Source: Candidatus Shapirobacteria bacterium | GTDB taxonomy: Bacteria > Patescibacteriota > Microgenomatia > UBA12405 > BS750m-G30 | Direction: 5' to 3' | DNA: 64,000 bases | Assembly (NCBI GenBank): GCA_043817235.1 | Contig: JBDRHA010000007.1 | Coordinates: 73,212-137,211, forward strand | Shown: one piece after another, positions 5,584-30,335 of the stretch | Numbering within the stretch: position 1 is the first letter of the stretch | Layout of the letters: the number at the start of each line of letters is the position of its first letter | The notes under the pieces: model-generated | Database searches by the model: none | What the model was told of the DNA's origin: nothing | What the model saw: only the letters and a program-made list of their open reading frames with translations | Made by a program: the position numbers and the translations under genes

Positions 5584-5589
5584 TTATCT

Positions 5590-6365
5590 TTCTTATCAAC
5601 CTCGGGAGTTGATTATCCTTGCAACCTCGGAATTTTTATTCATTAGTTAAAAATTCAATTTTTTTGAGTTCTTTTTGATAATCTTTTCTGTTAAAGACGA
5701 AATCTTTATAATTTTTAGACTTGTTGTGAGAAATAATTATTTCTTTTTTGCATATTTCTTGATTGTTGCTTAAATATTCCTGCAGCGAAGACCAAGGATA
5801 ATTTTTTAGTTGTTTTGAAGTATTTACTATTGCTGAGGAATATGGATTAAGGTGTATATATCGAGTAAGATGAAGAAGCTGCTCTTCATTGTTTACTAAA
5901 ACGGCCTTAAATCTGCCCTGAAAAAGTGGCCCAAATTTATCTTGCTTTTTGTTAAAATACCTTGCATATCCGTTTTGTACAGTAGCCATTAATTTTGATA
6001 TGCCATCATTTCTGTTTTGTTTTAAAAGAACATGGAAGTGGTTGGGCATTAGACAATAACAGATAATATCTGCATATTTAATATCTTCCTTTGAAAGATT
6101 TCTTAGGATTTTCTGTCTTTCTTCACTTTTTAAGATTAAAAATTTAGAATAACTACCAGGATGGTCTGAATGTTGATAGTAACTAAGCAGATCTTTAAAT
6201 CTTTGATAATCTCTCTTGCTTAAAAATATTGGCTGGCCATTGCTGCCGCGATTATAAACATGATAGTAGTAGTTAGTTACTAGAGGCAAAAATCTTCCTG
6301 GCATAGGTCAAAGATAACATCATAATTCCGATGTTGCAATAGCAATCAACTCCCGAGGTTGACTG
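5590..6365. mobile_element. IS200/IS605-family element (Y1 transposase only, possibly RAYT-like) bounded by palindromic hairpin repeats
   Basis: A transposase gene is flanked by mutually inverted hairpin sequences, ATCAACCTCGGGAGTTGAT (about 5596-5614) and AATCAACTCCCGAGGTTGA (about 6340-6358). A second, imperfect pair lies inside these (TTGCAACCTCGGAAT versus ATTCCGATGTTGCAA). Confidence 0.65.
5636..6304 (-). CDS. tnpA: HUH-type Y1 transposase, IS200-like / REP-associated tyrosine transposase family
   Basis: An HUH motif (..MPNHFHVLL..) and a catalytic tyrosine region (..LTRYIHLNP..) are present; the N-terminal YHVYNRG.. is typical of IS200 TnpA. At 222 aa it is longer than canonical IS200 TnpA. 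Confidence 0.7.
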   Translation of the reverse strand: MPGRFLPLVTNYYYHVYNRGSNGQPIFLSKRDYQRFKDLLSYYQHSDHPGSYSKFLILKSEERQKILRNLSKEDIKYADIICYCLMPNHFHVLLKQNRNDGISKLMATVQNGYARYFNKKQDKFGPLFQGRFKAVLVNNEEQLLHLTRYIHLNPYSSAIVNTSKQLKNYPWSSLQEYLSNNQEICKKEIIISHNKSKNYKDFVFNRKDYQKELKKIEFLTNE

Positions 6366-6368
6366 TTT

Positions 6369-6791
6369 TTGATTGGTAAATCTGGTAAAATTAACTACGT
6401 GGGCAAAAAGCTAAAACAAGATATTCCTAAACAGGCTTGGCTAAGGCTGGGGTTACTTTCTGTTTTAATTTTGGGTGCTGTTTGGCTTGCTACCGCTCGT
6501 TCCCCAAAATCCCCTTCAGGGGTAGTGGTAGGTGAAAAGCTAGAGCTTCCGGAGGGGGTGAATAAGGGGATCCAGGTTTTAGGCGAAACTGTGGATAAAA
6601 TTATGCCGGAGACTAAAGGAACTATGGTGAGCACAGTGGAGGAAACTCAAATAGTGGAGGAAATAAAAAAGACAGTGGCCTCTTTAACTGAACAGATTAA
6701 TGGTTTTCCCCAAAAACAGGAAAAAGAGATTAAAAGACAGGTAATTGAGGATGTATGCAGTCAACTATTAAATGACTTGGAAGAGGAATAA
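6369..6791 (+). CDS. Hypothetical membrane-anchored protein
   Basis: The ORF has an N-terminal TM segment ([15 protein letters not shown]) and no recognisable domain. It uses a non-ATG start, and a GTG at about 6398 is an alternative. Confidence 0.35.
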
Positions 6792-6793
6792 GT

Positions 6794-7873
6794 GTGGAAG
6801 AAAGACTAGGTGATTTAGAAAAAAAGCTGAAAAGCCTAAAAGAAAGGCTTTCTTTAAAAGAAAAAGAAGAAGAGCTAAATAGGCTAAAAAAAGAAGCAGG
6901 AGAAAAAGATTTTTGGCAAGACAGCCAGCAAGCTTCCAAAATAACGAGCCGGATTGGGTTTTTGGAAAAGGAACGAGGAGAAATAGCTCAGATGAAGCAA
7001 AGAATAGATTCTTGTAAAGAAATTGCTCTTTTGTTGGAGAAGGATCGCGATAAAGAATTGGAGGATCAGCTGGAGCAGGAAATAGCGGACATAGAGAAAA
7101 AGATGGAAGAATTGGAGGAAAAGAAATATTTATCGGGCAAATACGATGACCATGGAGCTCTTCTTTCTATTCACGCTGGCCAAGGAGGAACAGAGGCTAT
7201 GGATTGGGCAAGCATGCTGGAGCGGATGTATTTGCGCTTTTGTGAAAGCCGAAAATGGAAAACAACAGTAGTTGAGCTAGTTGCTGGTGATGAGGCGGGA
7301 ATCAAATCGGCAACACTGAAAGTTGATGGTTTTCAGGCATATGGCTATTTAAAAAAAGAGGCGGGTATCCATCGCCTGGTGCGTATTTCTCCGTTTAATG
7401 CCCAGCATCTGCGCCAAACTTCCTTTGCCAAAGTTGAGATATTGCCCTTGATTGAAGATGAGAAGGAAGTAGAGATTGGTCCTGATGATTTGGAATTTGA
7501 AGCCTTTCGGGCTGGTGGTCACGGAGGCCAGAACGTAAATAAAGTAGAAACAGCTGTAAGAATTAAACACAAACCAACGGGCATTGTTGTTTCCAGCCAG
7601 TCTGAGCGCTTTCAGGAAAAGAACCGACAAATTGCCATGAGCGTTTTAAGAGCTAAATTGGCAGAAATTGAGGAAGAAAAAAGGAAGCAAGAAGAGCAAA
7701 GACTAAAAGGGAAAAACCCGTTGCCTTCTTGGGGCCGCCAAATCCGCTCTTATGTTTTGCATCCCTACAAGATGGTTAAAGACTTGCGTACTCAAGCAGA
7801 ATCTAACGATCCGGATTCAGTTTTAGCCGGCAAATTAGATTCTTTTATTGAAGCGGAAATAAAATTAGAATAA
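6794..7873 (+). CDS. prfB: Peptide chain release factor 2
   Basis: The SPF tripeptide motif (RISPFNAQH) and the GGQ motif ([19 protein letters not shown]) are present with a conserved C-terminus. It uses a GTG start and has no internal frameshift site. Confidence 0.9.
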
Positions 7874-7903
7874 TATGGTATAAGGTTAAAATAGAAAAAG
7901 GAG

Positions 7904-8329
7904 GTGAAAGTGGAAGAGCAGGAAAAAAAGAAATTAATTTTGCTAGTTAGCGCAGTTTTTATCTTAGGATCAATTAGCGGCTGGGGATTATTCCGGCTTA
8001 CCAGCCGGTCAACCTCAACAGAAAACAAGACAGGAGAAATGGCTGCTCTGATTTCTGGCCAAGAGATCAAGGTAGGCAAGACGTATGGTCAAGAAGGTGG
8101 CGTTTTTAAAGATGAGGCAGAGGGGATGATTATCGTTAACGACGAAGGAGGCCAGGGTACTCACAAGCTTATTCGTGAGGGAGGAGAATCCCAGTCGGCT
8201 CATCTAATTTCTTCGGTTTTGGATTTAAACTTATTTATTGATCACAAGGTTAAGGTTTGGGGAGAAACCTTTTCCTCAGATGAAGTAGGCTGGCTCATGG
8301 ACGTAGGCCGGGTGGAAGTTTTGCAGTAA
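7904..8329 (+). CDS. Hypothetical secreted/membrane-anchored protein
   Basis: A GTG start is preceded by AAGGAGG and followed by an N-terminal TM helix. The stop overlaps the ftsE start. Confidence 0.45.
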   Translation: MKVEEQEKKKLILLVSAVFILGSISGWGLFRLTSRSTSTENKTGEMAALISGQEIKVGKTYGQEGGVFKDEAEGMIIVNDEGGQGTHKLIREGGESQSAHLISSVLDLNLFIDHKVKVWGETFSSDEVGWLMDVGRVEVLQ

Positions 8330-9015
8330 TGGAAATAGTTTTTAAAGGAGTAAGTAAGTCATTTGGTTCCTTAGAAGCCCTAAAAGATATTTCTTTTAGG
8401 GTAAAAGCGGGCGAATTTTCTTTTTTAACCGGAACTTCGGGAGCAGGAAAGACGACGATATTTAAGATTATTACCGGCCAGATTGTTCCGGACGAGGGCG
8501 AAGTGAAAGTAGGCGAATGGCTGGTGTTTGGCGGCCAAAAAAAAATTTCACCGAAAGAGCTTCTTGCTTTACGAAGAAAGGTTGGTTTAATTTTTCAGGA
8601 CTTTCAGCTTATTGAAGAATATACGGTTGAAGAAAATGTTAGCCTGGCTCTGGATATTTTATGTGTAAGGGGTAGAGATTGTTCTGAACAAGTAGGCAAG
8701 GTGCTGGAGAAAGTGGGGTTGCTTTCCAGAGCCAAAGCTTTTCCCCGCCAGCTTTCCGGAGGCGAGCTTCAGCGGCTTTCTTTGGCTCGGGCTTTAAGCA
8801 TGAAGCCCGAGATTTTGCTGGCCGATGAGCCGACCGGAAATTTAGACCCGGAAACCAGCTGGCAACTGATTGCTTTACTTGATAAGATTAACAAAGAAGG
8901 GACCACGTTGCTCATGGCCACCCATAATTTTGATATTGTTGATTCCTTTGAAAAAAGAGTAATTAAGCTAAAAAACGGCAAATTAGTCAGTGATAAAAAG
9001 AAAGGCAAATATTAG
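8329..9015 (+). CDS. ftsE: Cell-division ABC ATPase FtsE
   Basis: Walker A (GTSGAGKTT), the ABC signature (LSGGELQRLSLARAL) and Walker B (LLADEPTGNLD) are all present. Confidence 0.9.
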   Translation: MEIVFKGVSKSFGSLEALKDISFRVKAGEFSFLTGTSGAGKTTIFKIITGQIVPDEGEVKVGEWLVFGGQKKISPKELLALRRKVGLIFQDFQLIEEYTVEENVSLALDILCVRGRDCSEQVGKVLEKVGLLSRAKAFPRQLSGGELQRLSLARALSMKPEILLADEPTGNLDPETSWQLIALLDKINKEGTTLLMATHNFDIVDSFEKRVIKLKNGKLVSDKKKGKY

Positions 9016-9887
9016 TGAAAGCAACTACTAAAGTTTGGCAATATTTGCGCCGCAGCCCCCACCAAAGCTTAGCGGCTACAATGGTTATGTTCTCAAATTT
9101 TTTTCTTATTTCAGCCGTAGTTTTTGTGCTTTTTGGCTTAAGTTCAGTTTTGCGATTTTTAGAAACGAGGCCTGAGGTGACGGCCTTTCTGAAGGATGAG
9201 GTTAGCACTGCTCAGCGGGATGCTTTGGTTCAAAAGCTTGAGGCAGAAGAGGGAATTAAGGAGGTGCGCTATGTTAGCAAAGAAGAAGCCTTAAAAATTT
9301 ATCAGCAGGATTTTTCGGATAATCCTTTACTTTTAGAAATGGTAACTGCCGAAGTTTTGCCGGCTTCTTTAGAAATTTCTGCTCAAAGCCCGGAAGTTCT
9401 TAAAAATGTTGTTTCTGAGCTTACTTCTCAGGCCGATTTATTTGAAGAAGTGGTTTTTCAGCAGGAAGTAGTAGATTCGCTTTTAAAATGGACGCAAACC
9501 GCGGAGAAAATTGGCGGTGGATTAATAGTTTTTCTTTCTATGGTCTCCTTGGTGGTAATCTGGGTAATTATTAGCATGAAAATTACTTTGCGAAAAAAAG
9601 AAATTTCCATTTTAAACTTACTGGGAGCAGAAGGGAGCTATATTCGTAATCCCTTTTTACTGGAAGGAATTTTTTACGGAGTAGTAGGGGCGATTTTAGG
9701 TTGGAGTATTGTGGTGACTATTTCTTTTTTAATTCGGCCCAAGTTAGTAGATTATTTTCAACAAATACCGTTTTGGCCCAGCTCTTTTCTTCCGTTTCTT
9801 TTAATTTTGGGTGCAGAAATGCTTTTTGGGGCAATTATCGGCTTGCTGGCCAGCTTCATGGCCGTTAAAAAGCAGCTGCACAAATGA
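9015..9887 (+). CDS. ftsX: Cell-division permease-like protein FtsX
   Basis: The periplasmic loop follows TM1 and four TM segments are present, directly downstream of ftsE. Confidence 0.85.
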   Translation: MKATTKVWQYLRRSPHQSLAATMVMFSNFFLISAVVFVLFGLSSVLRFLETRPEVTAFLKDEVSTAQRDALVQKLEAEEGIKEVRYVSKEEALKIYQQDFSDNPLLLEMVTAEVLPASLEISAQSPEVLKNVVSELTSQADLFEEVVFQQEVVDSLLKWTQTAEKIGGGLIVFLSMVSLVVIWVIISMKITLRKKEISILNLLGAEGSYIRNPFLLEGIFYGVVGAILGWSIVVTISFLIRPKLVDYFQQIPFWPSSFLPFLLILGAEMLFGAIIGLLASFMAVKKQLHK

Positions 9888-12258: not shown

Positions 12259-13413
12259 ATGCCCAAGGGATGGATTTTTATTTTCTTCGTGATACTGCTG
12301 TTATTTCCGATAAAAAGTTTGGCAGTCTCTGACTTAATTTTATATAAATTTAGTTCTTTTTCTTCCCCCGACTGGATAGAAATCAAAAATATTAGTGAAG
12401 AGAGTATTTCTTTAAATAATTATTCGTTAGAGGATGAGGCTGGAAACAGGAAGACAAATTTTGACTGCTTTTTAAATTCAGGAGGAATTTATGCTGTTGA
12501 TTTTAGTAACTGGTTAAATAACGGCGGAGACGCTATCTATTTAAAAGATGTCGACGGAGTTATTGATTGTGCTGCTTATGGAGATAGCGAGTGTCCAGGC
12601 GAAAATCCATTAGATTTTGAGGAAGACAGTGATAACAAATATGGTATTTGGAATGGGGTAAGTTGGGAAATTACTGATGATTCCGGCAAAGCTGAAAATT
12701 CGGCTTGCGAAGTATTGCAGAATACTCCGGTTGTTGCTCCGACGCAAGTAAATACACCGACAGTATCTTCTAGTGGCAATTTTAAAATCAACGAGGCCAA
12801 GGATAGCGATGGTGGGAATATTTCTAACGCTAAGATATATGTGGATGATGTCTATACCCATCATTACGCTCCGGAAGATTTAGGGTTTTGCGATGGTTGT
12901 GATTGCAACAGTGGCGGAGAAGCTAGTTGCGGCTACGGCCAGCATAATATTAGGTTGACTAAGGACGGATATCAAGATTGGTAGCAAACAGTAACAATTA
13001 ATTCTGGGAATAATTATGAGGTTGATCCGATTTTAACTAAAGAAACCCCCACCTCCACTCCAACGCCTTCGTTTACGCCGACACCAACAATTAAGCTAAT
13101 AACTACCACTCCCAAAGCTTCTTTGACGCCGGCCTTGTCGCCTACTCCGACAGCAGATAGCGACTTAACCCCGACCTTAAAAGATGAAATTTCTTTATCG
13201 GTAACAAAAGAAAGTGGCCAGGCCGGCGAAATTTTGGGCGAAGCAAAGGAAGGAGAGAAGTCTTTCGGCTCAGTGAAAAACAAGAAAATTTTGGCTGGCG
13301 GCTTTATTGGCTTGGGCGGCGGCCTGATAGTGGCTGCTTCTTTGGCCGGAAACAAGAAGAAGCAAGAGAAAGCTGATTTTGATACAATGGAAGATAATGA
13401 AGACGAAAGCTAA
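12259..13413 (+). CDS. Secreted LTD (lamin-tail-domain) surface protein with Cys-rich module, PT-rich linker and C-terminal TM anchor, interrupted by a single in-frame TAG at 12982-12984
   Basis: There is a signal peptide (MPKGWIFIFFVILLLFPIKSLA) and an LTD-like segment (SPDWIEIKNISEESISL...NNGGDAIYLKDVDGVIDCAAYG). The same frame is open from 12985 to 13413 and encodes a PT linker followed by ILAGGFIGLGGGLIVAASLAGNKKKQEK. The track splits this into 12217..12984 and 13123..13413. Confidence 0.5.
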
Positions 13414-13801
13414 AAGAGCACTTCGCTTTTTAGGGCCAATCTTGTGGATGGCTTTTATTTTTTATCTTTCCTCGCGGCAAAGAATTGCCGTAAGCTCGAA
13501 CTACTGGCTGAGCTTTTTTATTTTCAAAACTTTGCACATAATAGAATATGGGATCCTTTTTTTCTTTTGGTATTCGGCCCTTTACGATCGAAAGGATAGA
13601 TTGCGATTAGCGATTATTTTTTCTTTTCTTTATGCAGTATTTGACGAACTGCACCAAAAATTTGTTCCTACTCGGGAAGGAAAAGTGCGGGATGTTTTTA
13701 TTGATTTATTAGGGATAATTATTTTTTGGCAGGTATTTTTAAATAGGTTGGAAAAAACAATAATTAAAATACCTATTCTTAAAAATATTCTCCCCTCCTG
13801 A
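13379..13801 (+). CDS. VanZ-like family membrane protein
   Basis: A VanZ signature is present (..AVFDELHQKFVPTREGKVRDVFIDLLG..) with four TM segments. Confidence 0.7.
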   Translation: MIQWKIMKTKAKRALRFLGPILWMAFIFYLSSRQRIAVSSNYWLSFFIFKTLHIIEYGILFFFWYSALYDRKDRLRLAIIFSFLYAVFDELHQKFVPTREGKVRDVFIDLLGIIIFWQVFLNRLEKTIIKIPILKNILPS

Positions 13802-13925
13802 GTCTATTTGAGGTCTTAATATCCAGTTGACAAAGCACTGAATAGTTTTTAGGATATAGGTTAGAAGAATTAGCACTTAAGATAAAGACAAATAGTTTAT
13901 GAAGTCGGATATTTTATTTATTATC

Positions 13926-13958
13926 GCCGTCCAGCATTAATGCTTGGGCGGTTTTTTT
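13926..13958 (+). terminator. Rho-independent terminator-like hairpin plus T-run
   Basis: CGCCGTCCAGCAT-TAA-TGCTTGGGCGG is followed by TTTTTTT, sitting downstream of the VanZ-like gene and upstream of the SD GGAGGTG. Confidence 0.5.
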
Positions 13959-13976
13959 ATGGAAGGAGGTGAAAAA

Positions 13977-14618
13977 ATGAAAAGAATCTTAACAAGTTTA
14001 TTTGTAATTGGGGTTGTGGCGGGTGTAATTACTAGTGCAACCAGTGCCTATTTTGCCGACGAGGGTGAAATTCAGGGTGTAACTTTTTCTACAGGCAATG
14101 CTGATTTGCAAATGACTCAGGTGTATATGCACAATTGGTATGCAGACAATGCATCTGCTGCGGATTTAGATATCCATCTTCCGGATGATCTTTACCCGGG
14201 CTATGAGGGAAGCTGGGGCAGCCCTGATGGGGCGATTTATTTGGGTAATTTTAGCGGCTCGCCGATTGATTTAACGGTGAGCGCTAGTATTACGAACTAC
14301 GCTGAAGATGTGGCTGGATTGGGCGATACGATTAAATTAGCCATGGCTTGGGGTGGAAATTGTGATAATCTGGGAGCGGGCACGGGCTTTCATGCTCTGT
14401 CTTGGTGGCAGTCTCACTCGGAAGATCTTTTTACTTATATTTCCGGCTCGGCCGACCCTGCTACCTGCGGCTTTATCCCCAATGAGCATTCTGGTGGTTA
14501 TGGAGGGTACGCAAGAGCCTTAAAGTTTTTCTTGAAAGTTCCGAACAATGCTGGGGATGAAATAGCCAATGGCGTGGCTTCGTTTAACATCCATTTTGAC
14601 GCCGAGCAAATGCATTAA
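13977..14618 (+). CDS. SipW-cognate-class secreted protein (TasA/camelysin-like)
   Basis: The SD GGAGGTG is followed by an ATG at 13977. The signal peptide ends in the SipW-cognate motif TSAYFADE, and the gene lies directly upstream of a SipW-type peptidase. Confidence 0.6.
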   Translation: MKRILTSLFVIGVVAGVITSATSAYFADEGEIQGVTFSTGNADLQMTQVYMHNWYADNASAADLDIHLPDDLYPGYEGSWGSPDGAIYLGNFSGSPIDLTVSASITNYAEDVAGLGDTIKLAMAWGGNCDNLGAGTGFHALSWWQSHSEDLFTYISGSADPATCGFIPNEHSGGYGGYARALKFFLKVPNNAGDEIANGVASFNIHFDAEQMH

Positions 14619-20133: not shown

Positions 20134-20949
20134 TTATTTTAATGGACTTTTAATATTTTTAAGCTTTGGATTTGTCACCTGTGTATACCGTTGAGTTGTT
20201 CTGATATTTTGGTGCCCGAGAAGCTCCTGAACGTAGCGGACATCTACACCGTTTTCCAGTAAATGAGTAGCAAAAGAGTGCCTAAGCGAATGAAAAGTTG
20301 CGTTCTTTTTTATGTTTGAAGCGTGAAGCGATTTTTCAAAAATTTTCTGAGCTGTTCTTGTGGTTAGTTTTCCGCCTCGCTCGCTGGCAAAAACAAGATC
20401 ATTTTTTGATTTTCCCGCAATCAGATTCCTAAGGTGGTTTGTTAATTTTTTTGGTAATACGCTGATGCGGTCTTTTTGTCCTTTTGCGTGCTTGATATGA
20501 AGAATCATTTCTCCTAAATCCAAATCTTGGATTTTCAAAGCAATAACTTCGCTTACTCGCAAACCTGCTCCATACGCAAGCGATAAAAGAAGCTTATGTT
20601 TTGTATTTGTCAGAGTTTGCAAAATCTTTTCAATCTCGACTCGCGATAGCACCACCGGCAAACTTTTGGGCTTTTTTGCTGAGCGTATTTTAATTTTCTG
20701 TGGATTTTTCACTATATTGCGGTAGTAATATTTGATTGCGTTTAACAACAAATTTCGAGTTTGGAGGGAGACTTTTTTTTGTTCACAATGATGTAAGAAA
20801 TTTCTGATGTTTTCCTGATCAAGCTCTTCAAAATTATCTTTCTTGAAGGTGAAATATTCCTGCAAACTATAAAGATAGCTTTTTATGGTCTTTGGACTGT
20901 AATTGAGAATTTTTAACTCCCGTTTGGTTTTTTCAAGTTGCTCTTGCAT
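20134..20949 (-). CDS. XerC/XerD-like tyrosine site-specific recombinase (short, 271 aa)
   Basis: The catalytic R..H-R-Y region is present (GLRVSEVIALK, HSLRHSFATHLLENGVDVRYVQELLGH, TTQRYTQV). Confidence 0.85.
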   Translation of the reverse strand: MQEQLEKTKRELKILNYSPKTIKSYLYSLQEYFTFKKDNFEELDQENIRNFLHHCEQKKVSLQTRNLLLNAIKYYYRNIVKNPQKIKIRSAKKPKSLPVVLSRVEIEKILQTLTNTKHKLLLSLAYGAGLRVSEVIALKIQDLDLGEMILHIKHAKGQKDRISVLPKKLTNHLRNLIAGKSKNDLVFASERGGKLTTRTAQKIFEKSLHASNIKKNATFHSLRHSFATHLLENGVDVRYVQELLGHQNIRTTQRYTQVTNPKLKNIKSPLK

Positions 20950-21109
20950 AATTAGTAGATCTTAGATAATATTGTCTTAATTTTAATGTGTTTGAGGAAA
21001 GATTATCATAACTTCACATAACATACAAATTATGACTTGAATTATGAAAACACTTCGTATAAAAACGAGTTATATGTAATTTGAGTCAGGAACATAAAAA
21101 AATAATGTA

Positions 21110-21125
21110 GGGGCAAAAATTTATA
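21110..21125 (+). repeat. GGGGCAAAAATTTATA motif, copy 1 (right-hand arm of an inverted-repeat pair bracketing gene 21149..22045)
   Basis: An exact copy recurs at 22282-22297, and its reverse complement AAATTTTTGCCCCTT lies at about 22053-22067 and 23391-23405. Each copy sits 8-25 nt upstream of an ATG and contains a -10-like TATA(C/T)(T/A). Confidence 0.6.
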
Positions 21126-21148
21126 TAGATTGCTAATTCATCAATATT

Positions 21149-22045
21149 ATGGACAAAAAAATCTTAAATCACTACTTACAATTTGGCACATTTACTAATC
21201 CTGGTTGCTATAAAGAATTTCTTCAAAATCTTCCAGATGATGTTAAAGAACTGGGCAACTTAATCAGTCATCAAATCATTCATCGCGTTACTCTCAAAGA
21301 AGGCAACACAAAAGCCAATAGAGATTTGCGTTACGGCGATATGAAAAAGCATCCTTGGCATAGATTAAGATGTGAGGATGATGTGTTGCCTACTGCGGTT
21401 TCAATGATTGCAGAATTATTAAGATTTGATGACCGAGGGTTTTTGCCCGACAGAAAAGTTGAAAATAAAATTGTTGTCACTTGTCGTTTTGTGGCAATAC
21501 TTATGGCATCTATATTGAAATCAAAAAATATTCCTTGCCGAGTGAGGTCTGGATTTGCGCCCTATTTCAATAAATATAGCGGTGACCACTGGATTAATCA
21601 GTATTGGGACAGTAAAAAAGAAAAGTGGATCACCTTTGACGCAGATGGATTTTTTGATAAGTCAATTGGGTTTGACCAATATGATATGCCTGAAAATAAA
21701 TTTGATTGGGCGGCAAATACTTGGCTTGGAATAAGAAACAAAAAATTAGATGCCAACAATTTTAGAAATGCGGACGGTTCTGTCGGGCTTATGCCAGTTC
21801 TTTGGGCAATATTTTACGATTTTCATAGTTTGATGAACAACGAAATTCTTTATAATCAAATGCCCAGTTATATTTATTTCAAATTTGATAAATTAACTGA
21901 AAAAGATTTTGAAGAAATTGATGAATTAGCCAAATTGATGTTAGAACCAGATAAAAACTTTGATGAATTAGTCAAAATCTGGAATACAAAGAAGAAATTC
22001 AGAATTTTGAATGGTCCACTTATTGGTGATAGCGATCACTTTTAG
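21149..22045 (+). CDS. Transglutaminase-like cysteine protease superfamily protein
   Basis: A Cys-His-Asp arrangement is present (VVTCRFVAILMASILKSKNIPCRVRSGF ... GDHWINQYWD ... WITFDADG). Confidence 0.55.
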   Translation: MDKKILNHYLQFGTFTNPGCYKEFLQNLPDDVKELGNLISHQIIHRVTLKEGNTKANRDLRYGDMKKHPWHRLRCEDDVLPTAVSMIAELLRFDDRGFLPDRKVENKIVVTCRFVAILMASILKSKNIPCRVRSGFAPYFNKYSGDHWINQYWDSKKEKWITFDADGFFDKSIGFDQYDMPENKFDWAANTWLGIRNKKLDANNFRNADGSVGLMPVLWAIFYDFHSLMNNEILYNQMPSYIYFKFDKLTEKDFEEIDELAKLMLEPDKNFDELVKIWNTKKKFRILNGPLIGDSDHF

Positions 22046-22305
22046 TGGAAATAAATTTTTGCCCCTTTATTTAATAAAATGTTTCTGACTCAAACTCACT
22101 CCGCTACGCTCCGTGCCACGTTGCGCTCTCCCTACACTTCGTTTCGGTCGGGACATATAACAAAGATTATGAGGAAAATGGCTCGGCTCGCCATTTTCCC
22201 AAATTTGCTCCACTTCGTTCCGCAAACTTCTCATAATCCTGACGTTAAGTGAAATAATTTTTAGTGACGATATCTTTTTAAGGGGCAAAAATTTATACTA
22301 CAAAT
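22046..22305. repeat. About 250-bp intergenic element bounded by a 15-bp inverted repeat (AAATTTTTGCCCCTT ... AAGGGGCAAAAATTT), MITE-like
   Basis: The terminal inverted repeats are at 22053-22067 and 22282-22297. The internal GC-rich block (ACGCTCCGTGCCACGTTGCGCTCTCC...CGTTTCGGTCGGGACATAT) resembles blocks in other intergenic regions of this array. Confidence 0.45.
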
Positions 22306-23391
22306 ATGACAAAGTTTATTCTCGGGTTACAACTGTGTGAACAATTTTATAAAGAGGTCGTGAAAGTTCTCATCGAAACAGAGTTTCATGGGCTCAAATA
22401 CTCTGCTGGATTGATTGGGTCTGGTTCGGAGGTTTTTGGTTTTGATACAGAGCGTTCGACCGATCATCATTGGGGTCCGCGTGTCCTGCTTTTTCTTTCT
22501 TCAAAAGACATCAGTAGGAAGAAACAAATTTCTGATTACCTCAGCAACAATCTTCCTCCAACATTTCATGGTTACTCAACACATTTTGGCAATCCTGACG
22601 AAATAGGTGTACAGCTTCTATCCGAGGCAAAAGCAGGACAACCGATCAATCATCGTGTGGAGATTTACACAATTGAATCATTTTTCAAAGAGTATCTGTT
22701 GATTGATCCCAATGATGATCTCACTGCTTCCGATTGGCTCACTCTATCCGAACAGAAACTCCGAACCATACGGAGCGGCAAAATTTTTTACGACCAACTT
22801 GGATTAAAGGCAGTTCAAAATAAACTCCATTATTATCCCAAAGATGTTTGGTTTTATATGCTTGCGTCTGAATGGATGAAAATAAGCCAAGAAGAACCGT
22901 TTGTTGGTCGTACTGGAGATGTGGGTGATGAATTAGGATCAAAAATTATTGCCGCTCGACTTGTGCAATCAATCATGAAACTCTGTTTCTCAATGGAGCA
23001 AGAATACGCACCATACAGCAAGTGGTTTGGTACGGCTTTTTCACGCTTAAAGTGTGCTAAAAAACTTTCGCCGATTTTGGATAAAGTCCTTTCCGCCAAA
23101 GATTGGAAAGAGCGTGAAAAATACCTTTCTCAAGCCTACAAAGTTGTTGCTCAAATGCACAATGATTTGAAACTCACCAAACCACTTGCAACAGAAGTAT
23201 CGAGCTTTCACGACCGACCTTATTTAGTGATTCACGGAGATGTCTTTGCAAACGAACTCAAGAAGAAAATCAAAGACCCTGCTGTCAAAAAGATTTCCGC
23301 TGATATTGGCTCCGTGAATCAATTCTCCAACACAGTTGATCTGCTAGAAAACGATAAACTGATGAAGAAGCTAAAAATTCTATACCGATAA
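22306..23391 (+). CDS. Nucleotidyltransferase-fold protein (minimal NTase N-domain plus DUF4037-like C-domain)
   Basis: The N-terminus carries the hG[GS]...D.E NTase signature (LIGSGSEVFGFDTERSTDHHW). Confidence 0.5.
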   Translation: MTKFILGLQLCEQFYKEVVKVLIETEFHGLKYSAGLIGSGSEVFGFDTERSTDHHWGPRVLLFLSSKDISRKKQISDYLSNNLPPTFHGYSTHFGNPDEIGVQLLSEAKAGQPINHRVEIYTIESFFKEYLLIDPNDDLTASDWLTLSEQKLRTIRSGKIFYDQLGLKAVQNKLHYYPKDVWFYMLASEWMKISQEEPFVGRTGDVGDELGSKIIAARLVQSIMKLCFSMEQEYAPYSKWFGTAFSRLKCAKKLSPILDKVLSAKDWKEREKYLSQAYKVVAQMHNDLKLTKPLATEVSSFHDRPYLVIHGDVFANELKKKIKDPAVKKISADIGSVNQFSNTVDLLENDKLMKKLKILYR

Positions 23392-23766
23392 TTTTTTGCC
23401 CCTTTTTATGGAAGTCACTAAAAATTACTCTCGCCAGCCCTTCGGGACGTTGCACTCTGGCTCGGGCTTCGCCTCACTTAACACAGAATATGCGGTTCTC
23501 TGCATTGCATTTGTTCTCCCAAATCTCTTGACTGATGTAAAATACAGCATATCAGTCGGCGTGACTTCGCCCATACTGGAACGTTATATGTATCTAGCGG
23601 ATATTCTCAACCGCTACCAATACACGGCAGAAGAGTTTGGCAATGCTTACCTCAAGAAAATGAATCACAATCTTAAGAGGGATTATTCAAAAAGCCAAAC
23701 GCAAATAATCGAGTTTTACTTCTTCGTTCCTCGAGCTCATTCAATTAGTTTTTGAGATAATCAATT

Positions 23767-24342
23767 ATGAAATTAGACACTTTTATCATTGGCAATCTAG
23801 AGAAAAACTTTTTGAGAAAGAGAAATAACGCAATGAAAAAATCAAAGGCCGATTTAGTCATGATTTTAAATACGGATATTGAAGTTTCCAATGTCAAGCC
23901 AACACTCAAACTCTTCGAGAAAGACGATAAGCTTTTTGCCGTCACTTTCTCGCCAGAATCTAGCCAATCGAAAATTGTAAAAAACGCTGAATTTGCCAAC
24001 GGTGGTTCTTCAATCTACAGAAGAAAAATTTGGAATAAGATTGGAGGAATAGACTTAATGTATGAGCCTTACTGGTGGGACGACGTTGATTACTCTTACC
24101 AAGCCAAGAAAATGGGTTACAAAATACTTGCTGATGGTAGAGTCAAAGTTGTCAAGAAAAGTGAGCTAGGCACAGACATTTTAGGTCGAAAACCTTATTC
24201 CAAATTTATTTATTACAGGAACCACCTGTTATTTCTCAGAAAAAACAAACCCAAAGAATTTCTCAAAAAATTTAAAAAACCTCTTTATCTTCCTCTACTG
24301 TTACTTGTCGAACTTAGGTTTAGAAAATTTCATAATTGCTAA
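23767..24342 (+). pseudogene. N-terminally truncated GT2 glycosyltransferase fragment
   Basis: The ORF begins inside the GT2 fold (..ADLVMILNTDIEV.. ; ..YWWDDVDYSYQAKKMGYKI..) and lacks the SYN / DGS.D N-terminal region. It is preceded by repeat-element sequence rather than an intact 5' end. Confidence 0.5.
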
Positions 24343-24373
24343 TTTATTTTAATTGACATTCGCTCTGCGGTAC

Positions 24374-24392
24374 TCGACCCCACTGCGTTTTC
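24374..24392 (+). repeat. TCGACCCCACTGCGTTTTC, a conserved GC-rich intergenic block (second copy at 26767-26785, degenerate relatives in other intergenic regions)
   Basis: An exact 19-mer is shared by the intergenic regions downstream of genes 23767 and 26197. Related CCCCA(Y)TGC(R)TT(Y)TC cores occur at about 25958-25972 and about 27538-27556. Confidence 0.6.
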
Positions 24393-24535
24393 AGCCGGAG
24401 AGCAGGGGAACGATTTTACTCTCCTTCTTCAGCTCGCACAACACGGCATGTAGGGTTAATGCCTCAGCTCGGCATTCAACCCAAATTATTCTGTCTTGTT
24501 GTAAAATAGTTTAACAAGCCAGTCTAACTTCCTAC

Positions 24536-24557
24536 ATACCGAAACGTTGTCGGAAAT
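24536..24557 (+). repeat. ATACCGAAACGTTGTCGGAAAT 22-mer, copy 1 (copies at 26131-26152 and, slightly diverged, 27588-27609), each preceded by a hairpin
   Basis: The sequence is identical at 24536 and 26131; 27588 reads ATACCGAAGCGTTATCGGAAAT. Each copy lies 45-160 nt upstream of the next + strand gene (24720, 26197, 27699). Hairpins sit upstream of each copy: CTTGTTGTAAAATAGTTTAACAAG (24495-24518), CATGTT..AACATG plus GTCCGCTTAACTACGGAC (26085-26130), and CGCATAACATAGTATATGCG at 27588. Confidence 0.65.
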
Positions 24558-24719
24558 ACGTTTTTAATTTTAAGATTTTCTGTTCCGCTTTTTATTAAGA
24601 AATAAAAACATTTTAGGGGGATAGAACAAAAGAAGAGTAAAACTTGAAAATCATTTCACCTGCTGTATAATACTGCCAACCTATTATTTTCTGCCCCTTC
24701 GATTTTTACTACAACTATT

Positions 24720-25838
24720 ATGACGCGGGAAATAGAGCCACCTAAAACATTTGAAACTGTCCCCCGACCCAGACCAGACACTTGGACACAGCTCTTTCAA
24801 GACGAAAAAAAATTAGCAGAATTAATGGGGGCATTTAAAGAAGTTACGGGAATTGATTTTTGCAACACTCCGATAAAAGCCTTAGGGAATAGAGTTATAG
24901 TGCCAGAATCGTTGATTACAAGACCAGAAGATATTAGGGGCGGGCCACTTACTGCCCTAGGTATTGTTAGACACATGCTTCTGGGCCATATAGTCATCTC
25001 TCCTTTTGATCCAGAACTGCTTGGTGCCAATGGCTACGATTTTAGAGTGTCTTGTCTACAAGGATATGCAAGAAGAGAAATAATAGAAGGTCTTAAAGAC
25101 AGAATCGGAAAAACCGGTCAAGTAGTTATCTATCATGAAGGATCTCAACCTAGAAGTGAATTCATTATTAATCCTTATAATCCAGATGACGTTGACCACA
25201 TCTGGCATTTAGTCAACGGAACCCAAGTTCAAGACATAAAAAGACAATCTCAAGATGATTGGGCCACTATCATGGGTGAAAATAGAATGGACGCTAGTGA
25301 TTGCCCGATAGATTTAAGAGGTGCACATCCCTTAAATCGTGCCTTTCTTATTCCGGGCCATCAAACTATCTTGTTGCGAACAGAAGAGGTAATTGGAGGA
25401 ATTGGTTGTGTGGTTCCAAAAATGTTGGGAAAATCTTCGAGCAGAAGGTGGGATTTTACTGTATGTGGAGATGCTCAACTTGGTAATTTAAATTGGATCG
25501 GTCATTGGGCCATTGAAGTTCAAAATATTACTGAATACACAAAATTCCTCGTTCACCAAACCCCTCTCGGACAGATGGAATTCACTCTAACAGCTGAAGA
25601 CCTACCCTCAAACTCTTCTTACGCTGGACAATATGCCAGCATCCAAGCAGCAGGAAACAATCTTCAAACTCTTTATTCTAATGTAGAACGGTATAGACAG
25701 AGATATCAAATAAGTGACTTATTACCCAGACCTCTTAGGTCTCCCGGCCCGATAGTAGAAGGGTTGACCCGTGAACAAGCATTCCGCGCTTGGGATAAAG
25801 CAGCAGAGATGTTTGGTACTCCACCAAGACAAAATTAA
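24720..25838 (+). CDS. Hypothetical protein with dCTP-deaminase/dUTPase-superfamily-like N-terminal region; GC-richer than surrounding genes
   Basis: The segment ..GHIVISPFDPELLGANGYDFRV.. resembles the Dcd-type beta-barrel motif. Its codon composition is visibly GC-enriched. Confidence 0.35.
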   Translation: MTREIEPPKTFETVPRPRPDTWTQLFQDEKKLAELMGAFKEVTGIDFCNTPIKALGNRVIVPESLITRPEDIRGGPLTALGIVRHMLLGHIVISPFDPELLGANGYDFRVSCLQGYARREIIEGLKDRIGKTGQVVIYHEGSQPRSEFIINPYNPDDVDHIWHLVNGTQVQDIKRQSQDDWATIMGENRMDASDCPIDLRGAHPLNRAFLIPGHQTILLRTEEVIGGIGCVVPKMLGKSSSRRWDFTVCGDAQLGNLNWIGHWAIEVQNITEYTKFLVHQTPLGQMEFTLTAEDLPSNSSYAGQYASIQAAGNNLQTLYSNVERYRQRYQISDLLPRPLRSPGPIVEGLTREQAFRAWDKAAEMFGTPPRQN

Positions 25839-26196
25839 AAGCAACTCTTTCAGCTCAAAAAATTCACCCCTCACCTCTCTTTTTTTCGCCGAATTTAAAA
25901 CAAGAGAGAAATAAAAAGCGGAACAGAAAATAGAGAATAAAGAACAAAAACGTACTCCTCGCTTCGCTCGCCCCATTGCATTCTCAACTTTTTTCTTTTA
26001 AAAAAATATAGCAAATAGTTTCGGGTCACCTAACACAGTATGTCCGGCTCATACGGTTGCACCTTTTCGCCCTAATTAAGCAGACATGTTGTAAAATTAA
26101 ACAGCCTAACATGTCCGCTTAACTACGGACATACCGAAACGTTGTCGGAAATCGAAAAACATTTAAAATACATCTATTAAAAATTAAGAAAATTTT

Positions 26197-26742
26197 ATGG
26201 CAGTAAAAATAACTTATTTTGTCCATGGCACCACCACCGATAATCAAAAGGAAATCTCTTCTGGTTGGTCTGATGTTGAGCTTTCTGATTTAGGAGTTAA
26301 ACAATCTATAGATCTCAAAGATCAAATTAAAGATAAAAAGCTTGACGTTGTTTTTTGTTCTGATCTCAAGCGAGCAGTTGATTCCGCCAAGCTTACTTTT
26401 GATGGTGTAGTCAAAATTATCCAGGATAAAAGATTGAGAGAATGTAACTATGGTGTACATAATGCTGGTCTATCTAGTATTGTCGAACCTCTCCAAGAAA
26501 AAAGCATCGTCAAAAGATTTCCTGAAGGCGAAAGTTATGAAGATGTTAAAAAAAGAATTCAAGATTTTCTTAATTTTCTAAAACAAAACTATGATGGCAA
26601 GCATGTTGCCATTGTCGCCCACAAAGCGCCCCAACTTGCTCTGGAAGTTCTTTTGAAAGGCAAGACCTGGGAACAAGCTTTTGCAGACGATTGGCGAAAG
26701 AAAAAAGCTTGGCAACCTGGCTGGGATTTTGTTTTAGAGTAA
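26197..26742 (+). CDS. Histidine phosphatase superfamily (phosphoglycerate-mutase-like) protein
   Basis: An RHG-like N-terminal motif (ITYFVHGTTTDN), ..VFCSDLKRAVDSA.. and a later HKAP histidine region are present. Confidence 0.65.
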   Translation: MAVKITYFVHGTTTDNQKEISSGWSDVELSDLGVKQSIDLKDQIKDKKLDVVFCSDLKRAVDSAKLTFDGVVKIIQDKRLRECNYGVHNAGLSSIVEPLQEKSIVKRFPEGESYEDVKKRIQDFLNFLKQNYDGKHVAIVAHKAPQLALEVLLKGKTWEQAFADDWRKKKAWQPGWDFVLE

Positions 26743-26906
26743 ATGTTTTTCGACTTCTCCTTTCAGTCGACCCCACTGCGTTTTCGTCGTTTTGTTTTTT
26801 AAATTTTAACAAACATCCTTAGGTCGTCTAACGCAATATATAGAGCTCGGTTCATTGTCCTCCCTCAAGCCCATATCGCTCATGCTTTTGATATAATACT
26901 TTAAAG

Positions 26907-27515
26907 ATGGCAAAATTACTCTTAACATCTACGGGGCTTGCAAACCAAAATATCACGGATCAGTTTTTACAAATAATAGATAAGCCGGGTTCTCAAATCA
27001 AAATTATATTTGTTCCCGCCGCCGCAAGAAACGAAGAAGAATTAAAATATATTGCCGAATCAAAAAAAGAACTTCTTGACTTAGGCATTTTTGAAGATAA
27101 CATTAAAACTTTGAATTTAGATAATCATGTTTTATTTAAAGAAGTCGAAAATTTTGATGTTATTTATGTATGCGGTGGAAATACTTTTTATCTGCTGAAA
27201 AAAGTTAGAGAAGTTGGCTTTGATAAGGTAATTATTGAATTTACAAAAACTGATAAACTTTACTTTGGAGTTAGTGCGGGAAGTATTTTAGTTTGCCCAA
27301 ATATTGATATTGCAAGTCCCTTTGACGAGAATGATATCAATTTAACTGATTTAACTGGATTAAATTTAACTGATGTGATTGTTTCCCCTCATTATAAAGA
27401 TGAAGAGAAGATGGTTATTGATAATTTCAAGAAAAAGTCACAGTATAAAGTTGTGCCTTTAACTGATGAGCAGGCATTGTTAGTTGTCGACGGGGAAACA
27501 AAAACAGTAGAATAG
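26907..27515 (+). CDS. Peptidase S51 (dipeptidase E / cyanophycinase-like) family protein
   Basis: It has a class-I glutamine-amidotransferase-like fold with a nucleophile-elbow serine (YFGVSAGSILVCPNI). Confidence 0.6.
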   Translation: MAKLLLTSTGLANQNITDQFLQIIDKPGSQIKIIFVPAAARNEEELKYIAESKKELLDLGIFEDNIKTLNLDNHVLFKEVENFDVIYVCGGNTFYLLKKVREVGFDKVIIEFTKTDKLYFGVSAGSILVCPNIDIASPFDENDINLTDLTGLNLTDVIVSPHYKDEEKMVIDNFKKKSQYKVVPLTDEQALLVVDGETKTVE

Positions 27516-27698
27516 CGCGCGTATTTGGAATTCAAGGGGATGCTGCGTTTTCGCATAACATAGTATATGCGGCTACGAACATCGCATATACCGAAGCGTT
27601 ATCGGAAATATTTTTTGTGATAAAATAAATCAAATTAATGCGAGGCGAGGTGCTTAAGTGATTGGTTCAGCCGGAGAGAGATAAAAAGTAAATTTATA

Positions 27699-30257: not shown

Positions 30258-30335
30258 CGGAGCGTAGCGCAGTTGGATTAACGCGCCCCGATCGGGTCGG
30301 GGAGATCGCGGGTTCGAGTCCCGCCGCTCCGACCA
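30258..30335 (+). tRNA. tRNA-Pro (anticodon CGG), genomically encoded CCA
   Basis: Manual cloverleaf folding gives an acceptor stem CGGAGCG/CGCTCCG, an anticodon stem CCCCG/CGGGG with loop AUCGGGU (U33, anticodon CGG, G37), a T-arm GCGGG-TTCGAGT-CCCGC, and a 3' ACCA. Confidence 0.8.

Follow-up and report, generated by a model that had tools for sequence, protein, structure and literature searches.

A repeated 22-mer as the probable 3' arm of attC-like sites in an integron-like cassette platform of Candidatus Shapirobacteria

Introduction

What is a 22-nucleotide sequence doing in front of three consecutive genes of an otherwise compact bacterial genome? We address this question for 64 kb of a chromosome from a metagenome-assembled genome of Candidatus Shapirobacteria (Patescibacteria, or Candidate Phyla Radiation, CPR), the stretch of DNA referred to below as the window. 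A search of the window located the 22-mer, ATACCGAAACGTTGTCGGAAAT, exactly at 24536 and 26131, confirming the original prediction, and a third time at 27588, where the copy is indeed present and differs by two nucleotides, not by the three first counted. All three precede the next gene (at 24720, 26197 and 27699, respectively), also as predicted. Three matches were seen where 0.01 are expected, and none of 100 shuffles gave three; the region is conspicuous as well for its intergenic gaps of 164-377 nt in a genome of 38.7% GC. We conclude that the 22-mer is very probably the conserved 3' arm of attC-like recombination sites in an integron-like cassette platform, whose recombinase lacks the additional domain (I2) of integron integrases.

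Results

The 22-mer ends a longer site whose arms covary

Alignment of the intergenic regions revealed that the 22-mer, which had been taken for the whole repeat unit, is merely the 3' end of sites of 54-132 nt. These are imperfect palindromes with a stem of 9-11 bp and a fixed order of parts: R'' (an 8-nt box ending in AAC), 3 nt, L'' (9 nt), a variable part, L', a 6-nt spacer CGAA(A/G)C, and R', which starts with GTT. From 5' to 3', the 22-mer spans the last part of L', the spacer CGAAAC, R' in the form GTTRTCGG and a GAAAT flank; the crossover falls at G↓TT within R' (the arrow marks the point of exchange). The L boxes vary in sequence yet stay complementary (GCATGTAGG/CCTACATAC, GTATGTCCG/CGGACATAC and GTATATGCG/CGCATATAC).

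A covariation check, suggested along with the original prediction, was run and found the long-range pairing kept with compensatory changes across homologous loci, which themselves contain the motif. When 13 sites from the window and related loci were aligned, 89.7% of the cells were paired, as against 19-39% in slid registers, again with compensatory changes. Across 40 distinct sites of related loci, the L helix was 95% paired and double-sided (compensatory) changes were observed in 9 of 11 pairs, while AAC was invariant in 41/41 and GTT in 42/42. The same set, in which site length ranges from 53 to 193 nt and the variable part from 11 to 151 nt, conserves the spacer (A/G)AAC and the 3' GAAAT flank, together with three irregularities: an AAA bulge, a 2-nt mismatch (position 10-11) and a long extension of the R helix. 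This covariation implies that the pairing is intrastrand. When folded as DNA, 11 of 12 sites had a bottom strand more stable than the top one, the usual difference being 4-6 kcal/mol; for the site that carries the first 22-mer (site 3), the values were -25.2 kcal/mol (z -4.9) and -17.3 kcal/mol. An extrahelical C in R'' (CG[C]AYAAC) was considered and rejected as an artefact of chimeric R boxes, since the box pairs 9/9 with its own cassette start and has no bulge there.

The hairpins noticed upstream of the three copies had been thought structurally equivalent. They proved to be three different structures: the one near 27588 is the true L''/L' stem (GTATATGCG/CGCATATAC), the one near 26131 is local and uses a second, internal copy of L'', and the one near 24536 falls within the variable region. 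What is conserved is a long-range pairing, whose 5' arm lies 11-79 nt upstream. A palindrome, AACGTT, flanked by CCGA and TCGG at 45-163 nt upstream of three genes had also suggested an operator, at which a dimeric helix-turn-helix protein would control the three accessory genes downstream together. The flanks are not paired half-sites: ACCG is a continuation of the L stem, and the R' box, GTTGTCGG, pairs with the distant ...AAC box. The arms pair and covary with the far 5' arm and not with each other, and the motif ends a structured element within which cassette boundaries fall. Moreover, the sole strong promoter (24644-24671) lies downstream of the motif without overlapping it, the sites follow genes and do not stand at promoters, and in other genomes the element follows unrelated genes and always tracks the recombinase. 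A look for a co-occurring recombinase or regulator had been suggested as a check; a tyrosine recombinase is present beside the array, while no regulator was seen in the window array. We regard an operator as extremely unlikely. Each site is functionally the 3' end of the cassette of the upstream gene and does not go with the downstream gene.

Two further motifs accompany the sites. CCCAWATT is conserved across genomes within the otherwise variable central part (in the window at 24479-24487, 26069-26077 and 26870-26876). CCCCAYTGCRTTYTC occurs at 24378-24392, 25971-25985 and 26771-26785, with variants near 22113 and 27540, soon after stop codons and within a module of ~60-80 nt located 5' of the R'' box; it is confined to this array and absent from the 24 loci searched.

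The sites are confined to one array and one orientation

When covariance model R1 was run over the window, its matches were confined to 21.0-27.6 kb. All were on the + strand, with far weaker reverse echoes of two sites in the filters-off scan only, and the orientation of the sites is defined because reverse-strand scores are far lower. The five sites of the window scored 34-102 bits and confident sites elsewhere at least 38 bits, compared with a best score of 17.8 bits in 83 kb of unrelated DNA. An Rfam search of the region returned no known RNA family.

These results bear on two simpler explanations. Imperfect palindromes after stop codons, in cassettes whose inverted-repeat ends resemble terminal inverted repeats, might be repetitive extragenic palindromic (REP) sequences, repeats like miniature inverted-repeat transposable elements (MITEs), or terminators, clustered by chance. 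We consider this very unlikely: there are no dispersed copies, all of them lying in one 6.6-kb array of the 64 kb and in one orientation, the top (RNA-sense) strand folds worse than the bottom strand, and the link to the recombinase and to a conserved attI-like site is strict. Nor are the sites intrinsic terminators, because no T-run follows the stem. Plain segmental duplication, the second explanation, draws on the two identical 22-mers and on the ~54 nt upstream of them, which are 80% similar. This similarity is limited to the sites, and the same site family stands beside different genes in other genomes. Since the genes between the copies are unrelated (dCTP-deaminase-like, histidine phosphatase, peptidase S51), segmental duplication is already refuted, and we leave it virtually no chance.

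The array lies beside a tyrosine recombinase and an attI-like site

The suggestion that the repeat could be a recombination core or cassette site held up: attC-like architecture with covariation was found in a co-oriented array next to a tyrosine recombinase gene and an attI-like site (Table 1). Eleven independent recombinase loci were compared (the window, L001, L020, L022, L023, L025, L026, L028, L029, L030 and L031), all with a member or close relative of the recombinase family. In 11 of 11, one to eight sites were present, and without exception they lay on the strand opposite to the recombinase gene and on its divergent side, while its other flank held unrelated housekeeping genes. L001, from a Patescibacteria single-cell genome, encodes a recombinase 57% identical to that of the window. 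Scans of public genomes and metagenomes for exact 20-mers gave 19 loci, with ~4 chance hits expected per 596 Gb; nine had the extended architecture, and the other 10, which lie in high-GC or unrelated DNA, were set aside as matches by chance.

An attI-like sequence with two TTCGYATAA boxes separates the recombinase gene from the first cassette and is conserved in five loci (alignment A4). The boxes of the window read TTC(A/G)YATAA and lie at 21012-21022 and 21053-21069; the crossover probably falls between G21069 and T21070 (…AAAAACGAG↓TTATATG). In L020, L022 and L023, the attI-like site terminates in AAAAACGAG↓TTAGGC, in keeping with the canonical GTTRRRY core, and the first-cassette starts of L020, L023, L026 and L030 map to the attI-like region.

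Table 1. Recombinase, attI-like site, cassettes and attC-like sites of the window (window coordinates; an arrow marks the crossover)
Feature	Position	Strand	Remarks
Tyrosine recombinase, 271 aa	20134-20949	-	Pfam Phage_integrase 3.9e-44
attI-like site	21010-21081	+	Kept in 5 recombinase loci; weak R1 match, E 0.024, filters off
Cassette 1, transglutaminase-like open reading frame (ORF) 21149-22045	21070-22244	+	
attC-like site 1: R'' CATATAAC, L'' GATTATGAG, L' CTCATAATC, R' G22244↓TTAAGTG	22149-22256	+	R1 33.7 bits, E 4e-7
Cassette 2, DUF4037 protein ORF 22306-23391	22245-23583	+	Inverted 17-mers 22280-96, 23388-404
attC-like site 2, decayed (…CATACTGGAACG23583↓TTATATG)	23470-23595	+	R1 44.3 bits, E 7e-10
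Cassette 3, 191-aa ORF 23767-24342, function not assigned	23584-24546	+	
attC-like site 3, first 22-mer 24536-24557, crossover G24546↓TT	24430-24558	+	R1 102.4 bits
Cassette 4, dCTP-deaminase-like 372-aa ORF 24720-25838	24547-26141	+	Perfect 22-nt inverted repeat 24575-24596 / 25910-25931
attC-like site 4, second 22-mer 26131-26152, crossover G26141↓TT	26022-26153	+	R1 91.4 bits; L stem GTATGTCCG/CGGACATAC
Cassette 5, fusion of two cassettes: histidine phosphatase ORF 26197-26742, half-site relic, Peptidase_S51 ORF 26907-27515	26142-27598	+	
Relic 5' half-site: R'' CGTCTAAC 26825-32, L''-like ATATATAGAG, variable-region motif CCCATAT	26822-26880	+	Alignment A1; 3' arm lost
attC-like site 5, short, 11-nt loop, third 22-mer 27588-27609, crossover G27598↓TT	27547-27610	+	R1 61 bits

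Cassettes are discrete units with a crossover at G↓TT

Related loci show both the duplication of a cassette and a switch of partners at G↓TT, in agreement with the recombination-site reading. In L001, a 191-bp cassette without an ORF is present twice (3059-3249 and 6345-6535), 100% identical between the bounding GTT and GTT(A); one copy is placed precisely at the attI junction and the other in the middle of the array. In L022 and L023, the recombinase and attI units are 92% identical, homology collapses ~15 nt past G↓TT, and the cassettes beyond attI are unrelated.

The pairing of the R boxes revealed the same boundary. Within a site, R-helix pairing falls beyond G↓TT (85, 74, 31 and 33%), and it is restored when R'' is matched with the R' of the upstream neighbour, that is, with the start of its own cassette (85/69/85% at positions 5-7, compared with 73/46/42%). 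In an unbiased partner search, six sites had upstream partners of at least 21/27 at cassette-length distances, those of first cassettes lying in the attI region, while downstream controls gave none. The complementarity of cassette ends runs on from the R box for 24-38 nt in L009, L014, L016, L023 and L030, and this accounts for the inverted 17-mers around genes 1 and 2 and for the 22-nt repeat around gene 4 of the window.

Within the window, cassette 1 is bracketed by inverted 17-mers (21108-21124 and 22051-67) and 16-mers (~21081 and ~22080). Its R box pairs 9/9 between its own ends, compared with 7/9 with the R' of the same site; for cassette 2, the corresponding values are 9/9 and 6/9. For cassettes 1, 2 and 4, the fold of the own tail with the own head was the most stable among six possible heads, by 9.6-13.5 kcal/mol (-53.5 vs -41.5 for the next best, -43.4 vs -33.8 and -58.1 vs -44.6 kcal/mol, respectively), while own-end complementarity was marginal for cassette 3 (-44.7 vs -42.1 kcal/mol). 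The 17-mer that brackets genes 1 and 2, AAGGGGCAAAAATTTAT, is also listed at 24683-24699. On the basis of the 191-bp duplication, the partner switch and the complementary ends, the cassettes are discrete movable units with their crossover at G↓TT.

The recombinase lacks I2 and belongs to a large family

The recombinase is IntI/XerA-like, and its catalytic residues are intact (R131, K156, H220, R223, H246 and Y255). Its best NCBIfam match is the integron integrase model TIGR02249 (215.6 bits, in two stretches), on which its relatives score 214-232 bits; the archaeal XerA/integron-integrase model nearly ties with it. The model NF040815, "site-specific tyrosine recombinase/integron integrase", gives 212-233 bits on family members, and some relatives just pass. 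The closest solved structure is VchIntIA (2A3V). An AlphaFold model was not used, as the pLDDT (predicted local distance difference test) score of the catalytic domain was below 50 and the alignment too shallow.

The gap at the I2 position, seen against VchIntIA, appears likewise in alignments with IntI1 (R100) and with P0152, a 48%-identical relative that carries an insertion of I2 length and position and aligns end to end with VchIntIA; the P0152 locus has the same kind of site. At E ≤ 1e-30, the family numbers more than 6,300 proteins, and clustering at 50% gives 2,495 representatives. Members are uniformly ~270 aa long and labelled XerD or generic recombinase in the sources, and an alignment of 35 members contains no indels. 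The absence of I2 is a fixed trait of this large CPR-wide family. One member, P0044 of L022, is annotated with a 295-aa start that overlaps the attI-like site (L022 10001-10075); translation probably begins 25 codons further on, which would yield a protein of the usual 270 aa.

Relatives without the insert also occur on Clostridium plasmids. In L032 (Clostridium estertheticum plasmid), the recombinase gene and an overlapping IS91-family transposase gene form a pair that is present twice (7001-9038 and 12367-14404), and these insert-less relatives bear the name "site-specific tyrosine recombinase/integron integrase". The pair is a different use of the same type of protein. Being IS91-linked and not array-linked, the Clostridium relatives were not counted as support.

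A recombinase of this kind raises the question whether it serves the array at all. The sites might instead form a cluster of attC sites lacking an integron integrase (CALIN), mobilised in trans by an I2-bearing IntI encoded elsewhere; the neighbouring gene would then be a housekeeping Xer and the "attI" its dif, as in XerS/difSL. Without an insert, the recombinase aligns collinearly with XerA and XerC/D, its family members carry the XerD label, and the attI core is, by eye, an imperfect inverted repeat round a 7-nt centre (TTCGTATAA-AAACGAG-TTAGGCGAA). CTX phage, moreover, integrates at dif as a folded single-stranded DNA hairpin through XerCD, without I2. Smyshlyaev et al. (PMC8138268) place CPR Xer-like recombinases in a presumed housekeeping subgroup, "Cand". 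Against this, the recombinase falls below all Xer cutoffs (XerC 185.7 vs 335, XerD 180.2 vs 329.6 and XerA 212.4 vs 220), and the 64-kb window contains no second recombinase. To either side of the locus, GC skew is positive (+0.16 to +0.24 at 0-20 kb and +0.09 to +0.21 at 34-64 kb), and because it keeps its sign, the locus is not at the replication terminus; a role of attI as dif was rejected for this genome on the same ground. The adjacency and divergent orientation persist in 11/11 loci with otherwise unrelated flanks, and the recombinase-attI unit is portable, being 92% identical in different genomic contexts. We therefore judge mobilisation in trans beside a housekeeping Xer to be unlikely and favour a dedicated platform.

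Other features of the window array and of related arrays

Cassette 4 contains a near-consensus promoter, the one at 24644-24671 (TTGAAA-16-TATAAT, 11/12 matches), and is therefore independent of a platform promoter; at the attI region, the + strand showed none comparable. Sites 1 and 2 are the diverged members of the array. Sites 1 and 5 have perfect 9-bp L stems, that of site 1 being unlike the other sites in sequence, and site 5 ends the array. The half-site relic in cassette 5 (26822-26880) was undetected by R1. With a decayed site 2, a cassette 5 fused round a relic and a promoter in cassette 4, the window array looks old.

Two ORFs overlap recombination sites, one of 119 aa (23396-23755, +) and one of 73 aa (22067-22288, -), and both are probably not genes; the former, which was the one scanned, had no family match. 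PADLOC found no defence families in the window cassettes. A cassette shared between the window and L001 was considered and rejected, the histidine-phosphatase cassettes being just 30% identical and hence different cassettes. A tRNA-Pro(CGG) gene lies at 30258-30335, 2.6 kb past the last site. Between 18 and 34 kb, GC skew drops to ~0, with a dip in GC content to 0.36 at the end nearer the recombinase; foreign or reoriented DNA would fit this pattern.

The cassettes of related arrays include defence-type genes (L022 500-9730, L028 1900-9660 and L026 350-3130), namely restriction-modification, an OLD-like ATPase/TOPRIM protein, RadC, a 1414-aa NACHT protein and a pair of helix-turn-helix and peptidase M78 genes; some of these cassettes are multi-gene and 3-6.5 kb long. 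An overlapping two-gene cassette in L001 (7117-7795) resembles, by eye, a nucleotidyltransferase/HEPN toxin-antitoxin pair. The eight-site array of L030 is broken at 3022-6120 by insertion-sequence genes (rve and DDE_Tnp_4 transposases).

Discussion

A proposed mechanism and what weighs against it

Taken together, the covarying site structure, the fixed orientation and position relative to the recombinase in all loci compared, the conservation of an attI-like site, the mapped crossover point and the modularity of the cassettes carry our interpretation. The platform consists of the tyrosine recombinase gene (20134-20949, - strand), a double-stranded attI-like site (~21010-21081) and an array of five cassettes in a common orientation (21070-27598), with one folded site at the end of each. 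By analogy with integrons, we propose that one strand of the site, probably the bottom one, would fold into a hairpin, and the recombinase would bind its R and L duplexes. Single-strand exchange at G↓TT would then lead to excision (site with site) or to insertion at attI (attI with site), and replication would resolve the product. We infer that the neighbouring recombinase is the enzyme; the substrate is presumably single-stranded, with the bottom strand as the likely one used, and the system may still be active in this genome.

Several points weigh against the platform reading. The whole account is computational and covers 64 kb of a 239-kb contig, not the whole genome, and a canonical intI could lie elsewhere. 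The first 13 sites were chosen partly for L pairing, and the covariation counts come from an alignment (A7) that was itself fitted to the covariance model. In the window, sites 3-5 share nearly one R' box and therefore hold no partner-switch information; with its decayed site 2 and fused cassette 5, this particular array may be old and inactive. The recombinase fails to reach the TIGR02249 cutoff (215.6 bits, cutoff 265), and at the position of the I2 insert, it has 18 aa where VchIntIA has 61. The integron literature treats the additional domain (I2) as defining and as necessary for recombination. Finally, the Clostridium plasmid relatives without the insert (~40% identity) are linked to IS91 transposases and not to arrays, and family membership alone therefore implies no cassette function.

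Standing and significance

The Mazel laboratory regards the gain of I2 as the innovation that shifted the enzymes from double-stranded to folded single-stranded substrates, and IntegronFinder requires the I2 insert for integrase detection. A 2026 study found no attC on 97% of the contigs with integron-type recombinases and suggested novel attC sites. The host phylum, with its ultra-small genomes, is not among the listed integron-bearing phyla, and in the full-text literature searched, we found no earlier description of integrons or attC arrays in Patescibacteria/CPR; most subscription journals are outside that coverage, and a prior report is possible.

We hypothesize, at about even chances, that a large CPR-wide integron lineage works with an I2-less integrase. 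Its sites would be marked in another way, by an AAA bulge, a conserved 2-nt mismatch and cassette ends whose complementarity extends over tens of bases. Such a lineage would be either a living intermediate from before I2, standing between Xer/dif and integrons, or a streamlined form showing that I2 is dispensable. If true, a widespread integron of full layout without I2 would make the evolutionary question of I2 directly testable. It would also explain in part why "integron-type" recombinases occur without findable attC, offer a concrete candidate for the "novel attC sites", and reassign a recombinase family presumed to be housekeeping Xer. Because related arrays hold restriction-modification, OLD-like and NACHT genes, the platform may serve the exchange of defence genes, and the long complementary cassette ends may bear on the unsolved origin of cassettes.

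Comparison with known systems

At the level of the protein, the window recombinase probably belongs with the "Cand" and "integron-like" subgroups of simple tyrosine recombinases (Smyshlyaev et al. 2021, PMC8138268) and with NF040815. These were classified by protein sequence only, with no array or site attached, and the "Cand" group is presumed to be an Xer substitute (PMC8138268). Archaeal integrons (Ghaly et al. 2022, PMC9668308) are alike in their unexpected hosts, mostly known from metagenome-assembled genomes, and in their chromosomal arrays. They differ in that archaeal IntIs reportedly keep the IntI-specific additional domain, absent here, and have canonical folding attCs detectable by IntegronFinder (PMC9668308).

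The Xer/dif systems with a single recombinase (XerS/difSL and XerA/dif) share a short, simple, Xer-collinear recombinase and, as in XerS/difSL, a site beside the gene. They differ in that the locus described here is not at the terminus and holds many co-oriented single-gene cassettes, each with a site, and not a few whole phages or islands. CTX phage provides a precedent in which an I2-less recombinase joins a folded single-stranded hairpin to a double-stranded site by exchange of a single strand. The pdif modules of Acinetobacter plasmids are gene modules bounded by Xer-type sites that are short, double-stranded, of alternating orientation and without a hairpin. Discrete modules are common to both; the sites of the present system are long covarying hairpins in direct orientation with a dedicated recombinase alongside.

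Membership among canonical integrons was rejected, since the integrase is without I2 and below the cutoff and the geometry of the sites differs. The 5' spacer is 3 nt here and 5 nt in canonical sites, the L boxes are longer (9-11 bp), and L'' has no extrahelical G, the canonical extrahelical G and T being replaced by an AAA bulge and a 2-nt mismatch. The majority of R boxes depart from the RYYY/RRRY part of the RYYYAAC/GTTRRRY consensus. Canonical integron cassettes are not known to pair over more than about 7 nt, compared with 17-38 nt of cassette-end complementarity here. Model R1 gave no match in the class 1 integron of R100, even with E values up to 10 admitted, and left the canonical aadA1 attC undetected. 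When the aadA1 attC was read in R100, however, it displayed the same modular order, AAC/GTT boxes, 6-nt 3' spacer and G↓TT. The sedentary chromosomal integrons, such as the Vibrio cholerae superintegron, share the layout: a divergent integrase with an adjacent attI, crossover at G↓TT, and co-oriented, mostly single-gene cassettes of miscellaneous function, to which toxin-antitoxin and defence genes are added in the arrays related to ours. Their sites (Vibrio cholerae repeats, VCR/attC) have the same R''-spacer-L''-variable-L'-spacer-R' order, invariant AAC/GTT, a 6-nt 3' spacer and, after exchange, the same chimeric R boxes.

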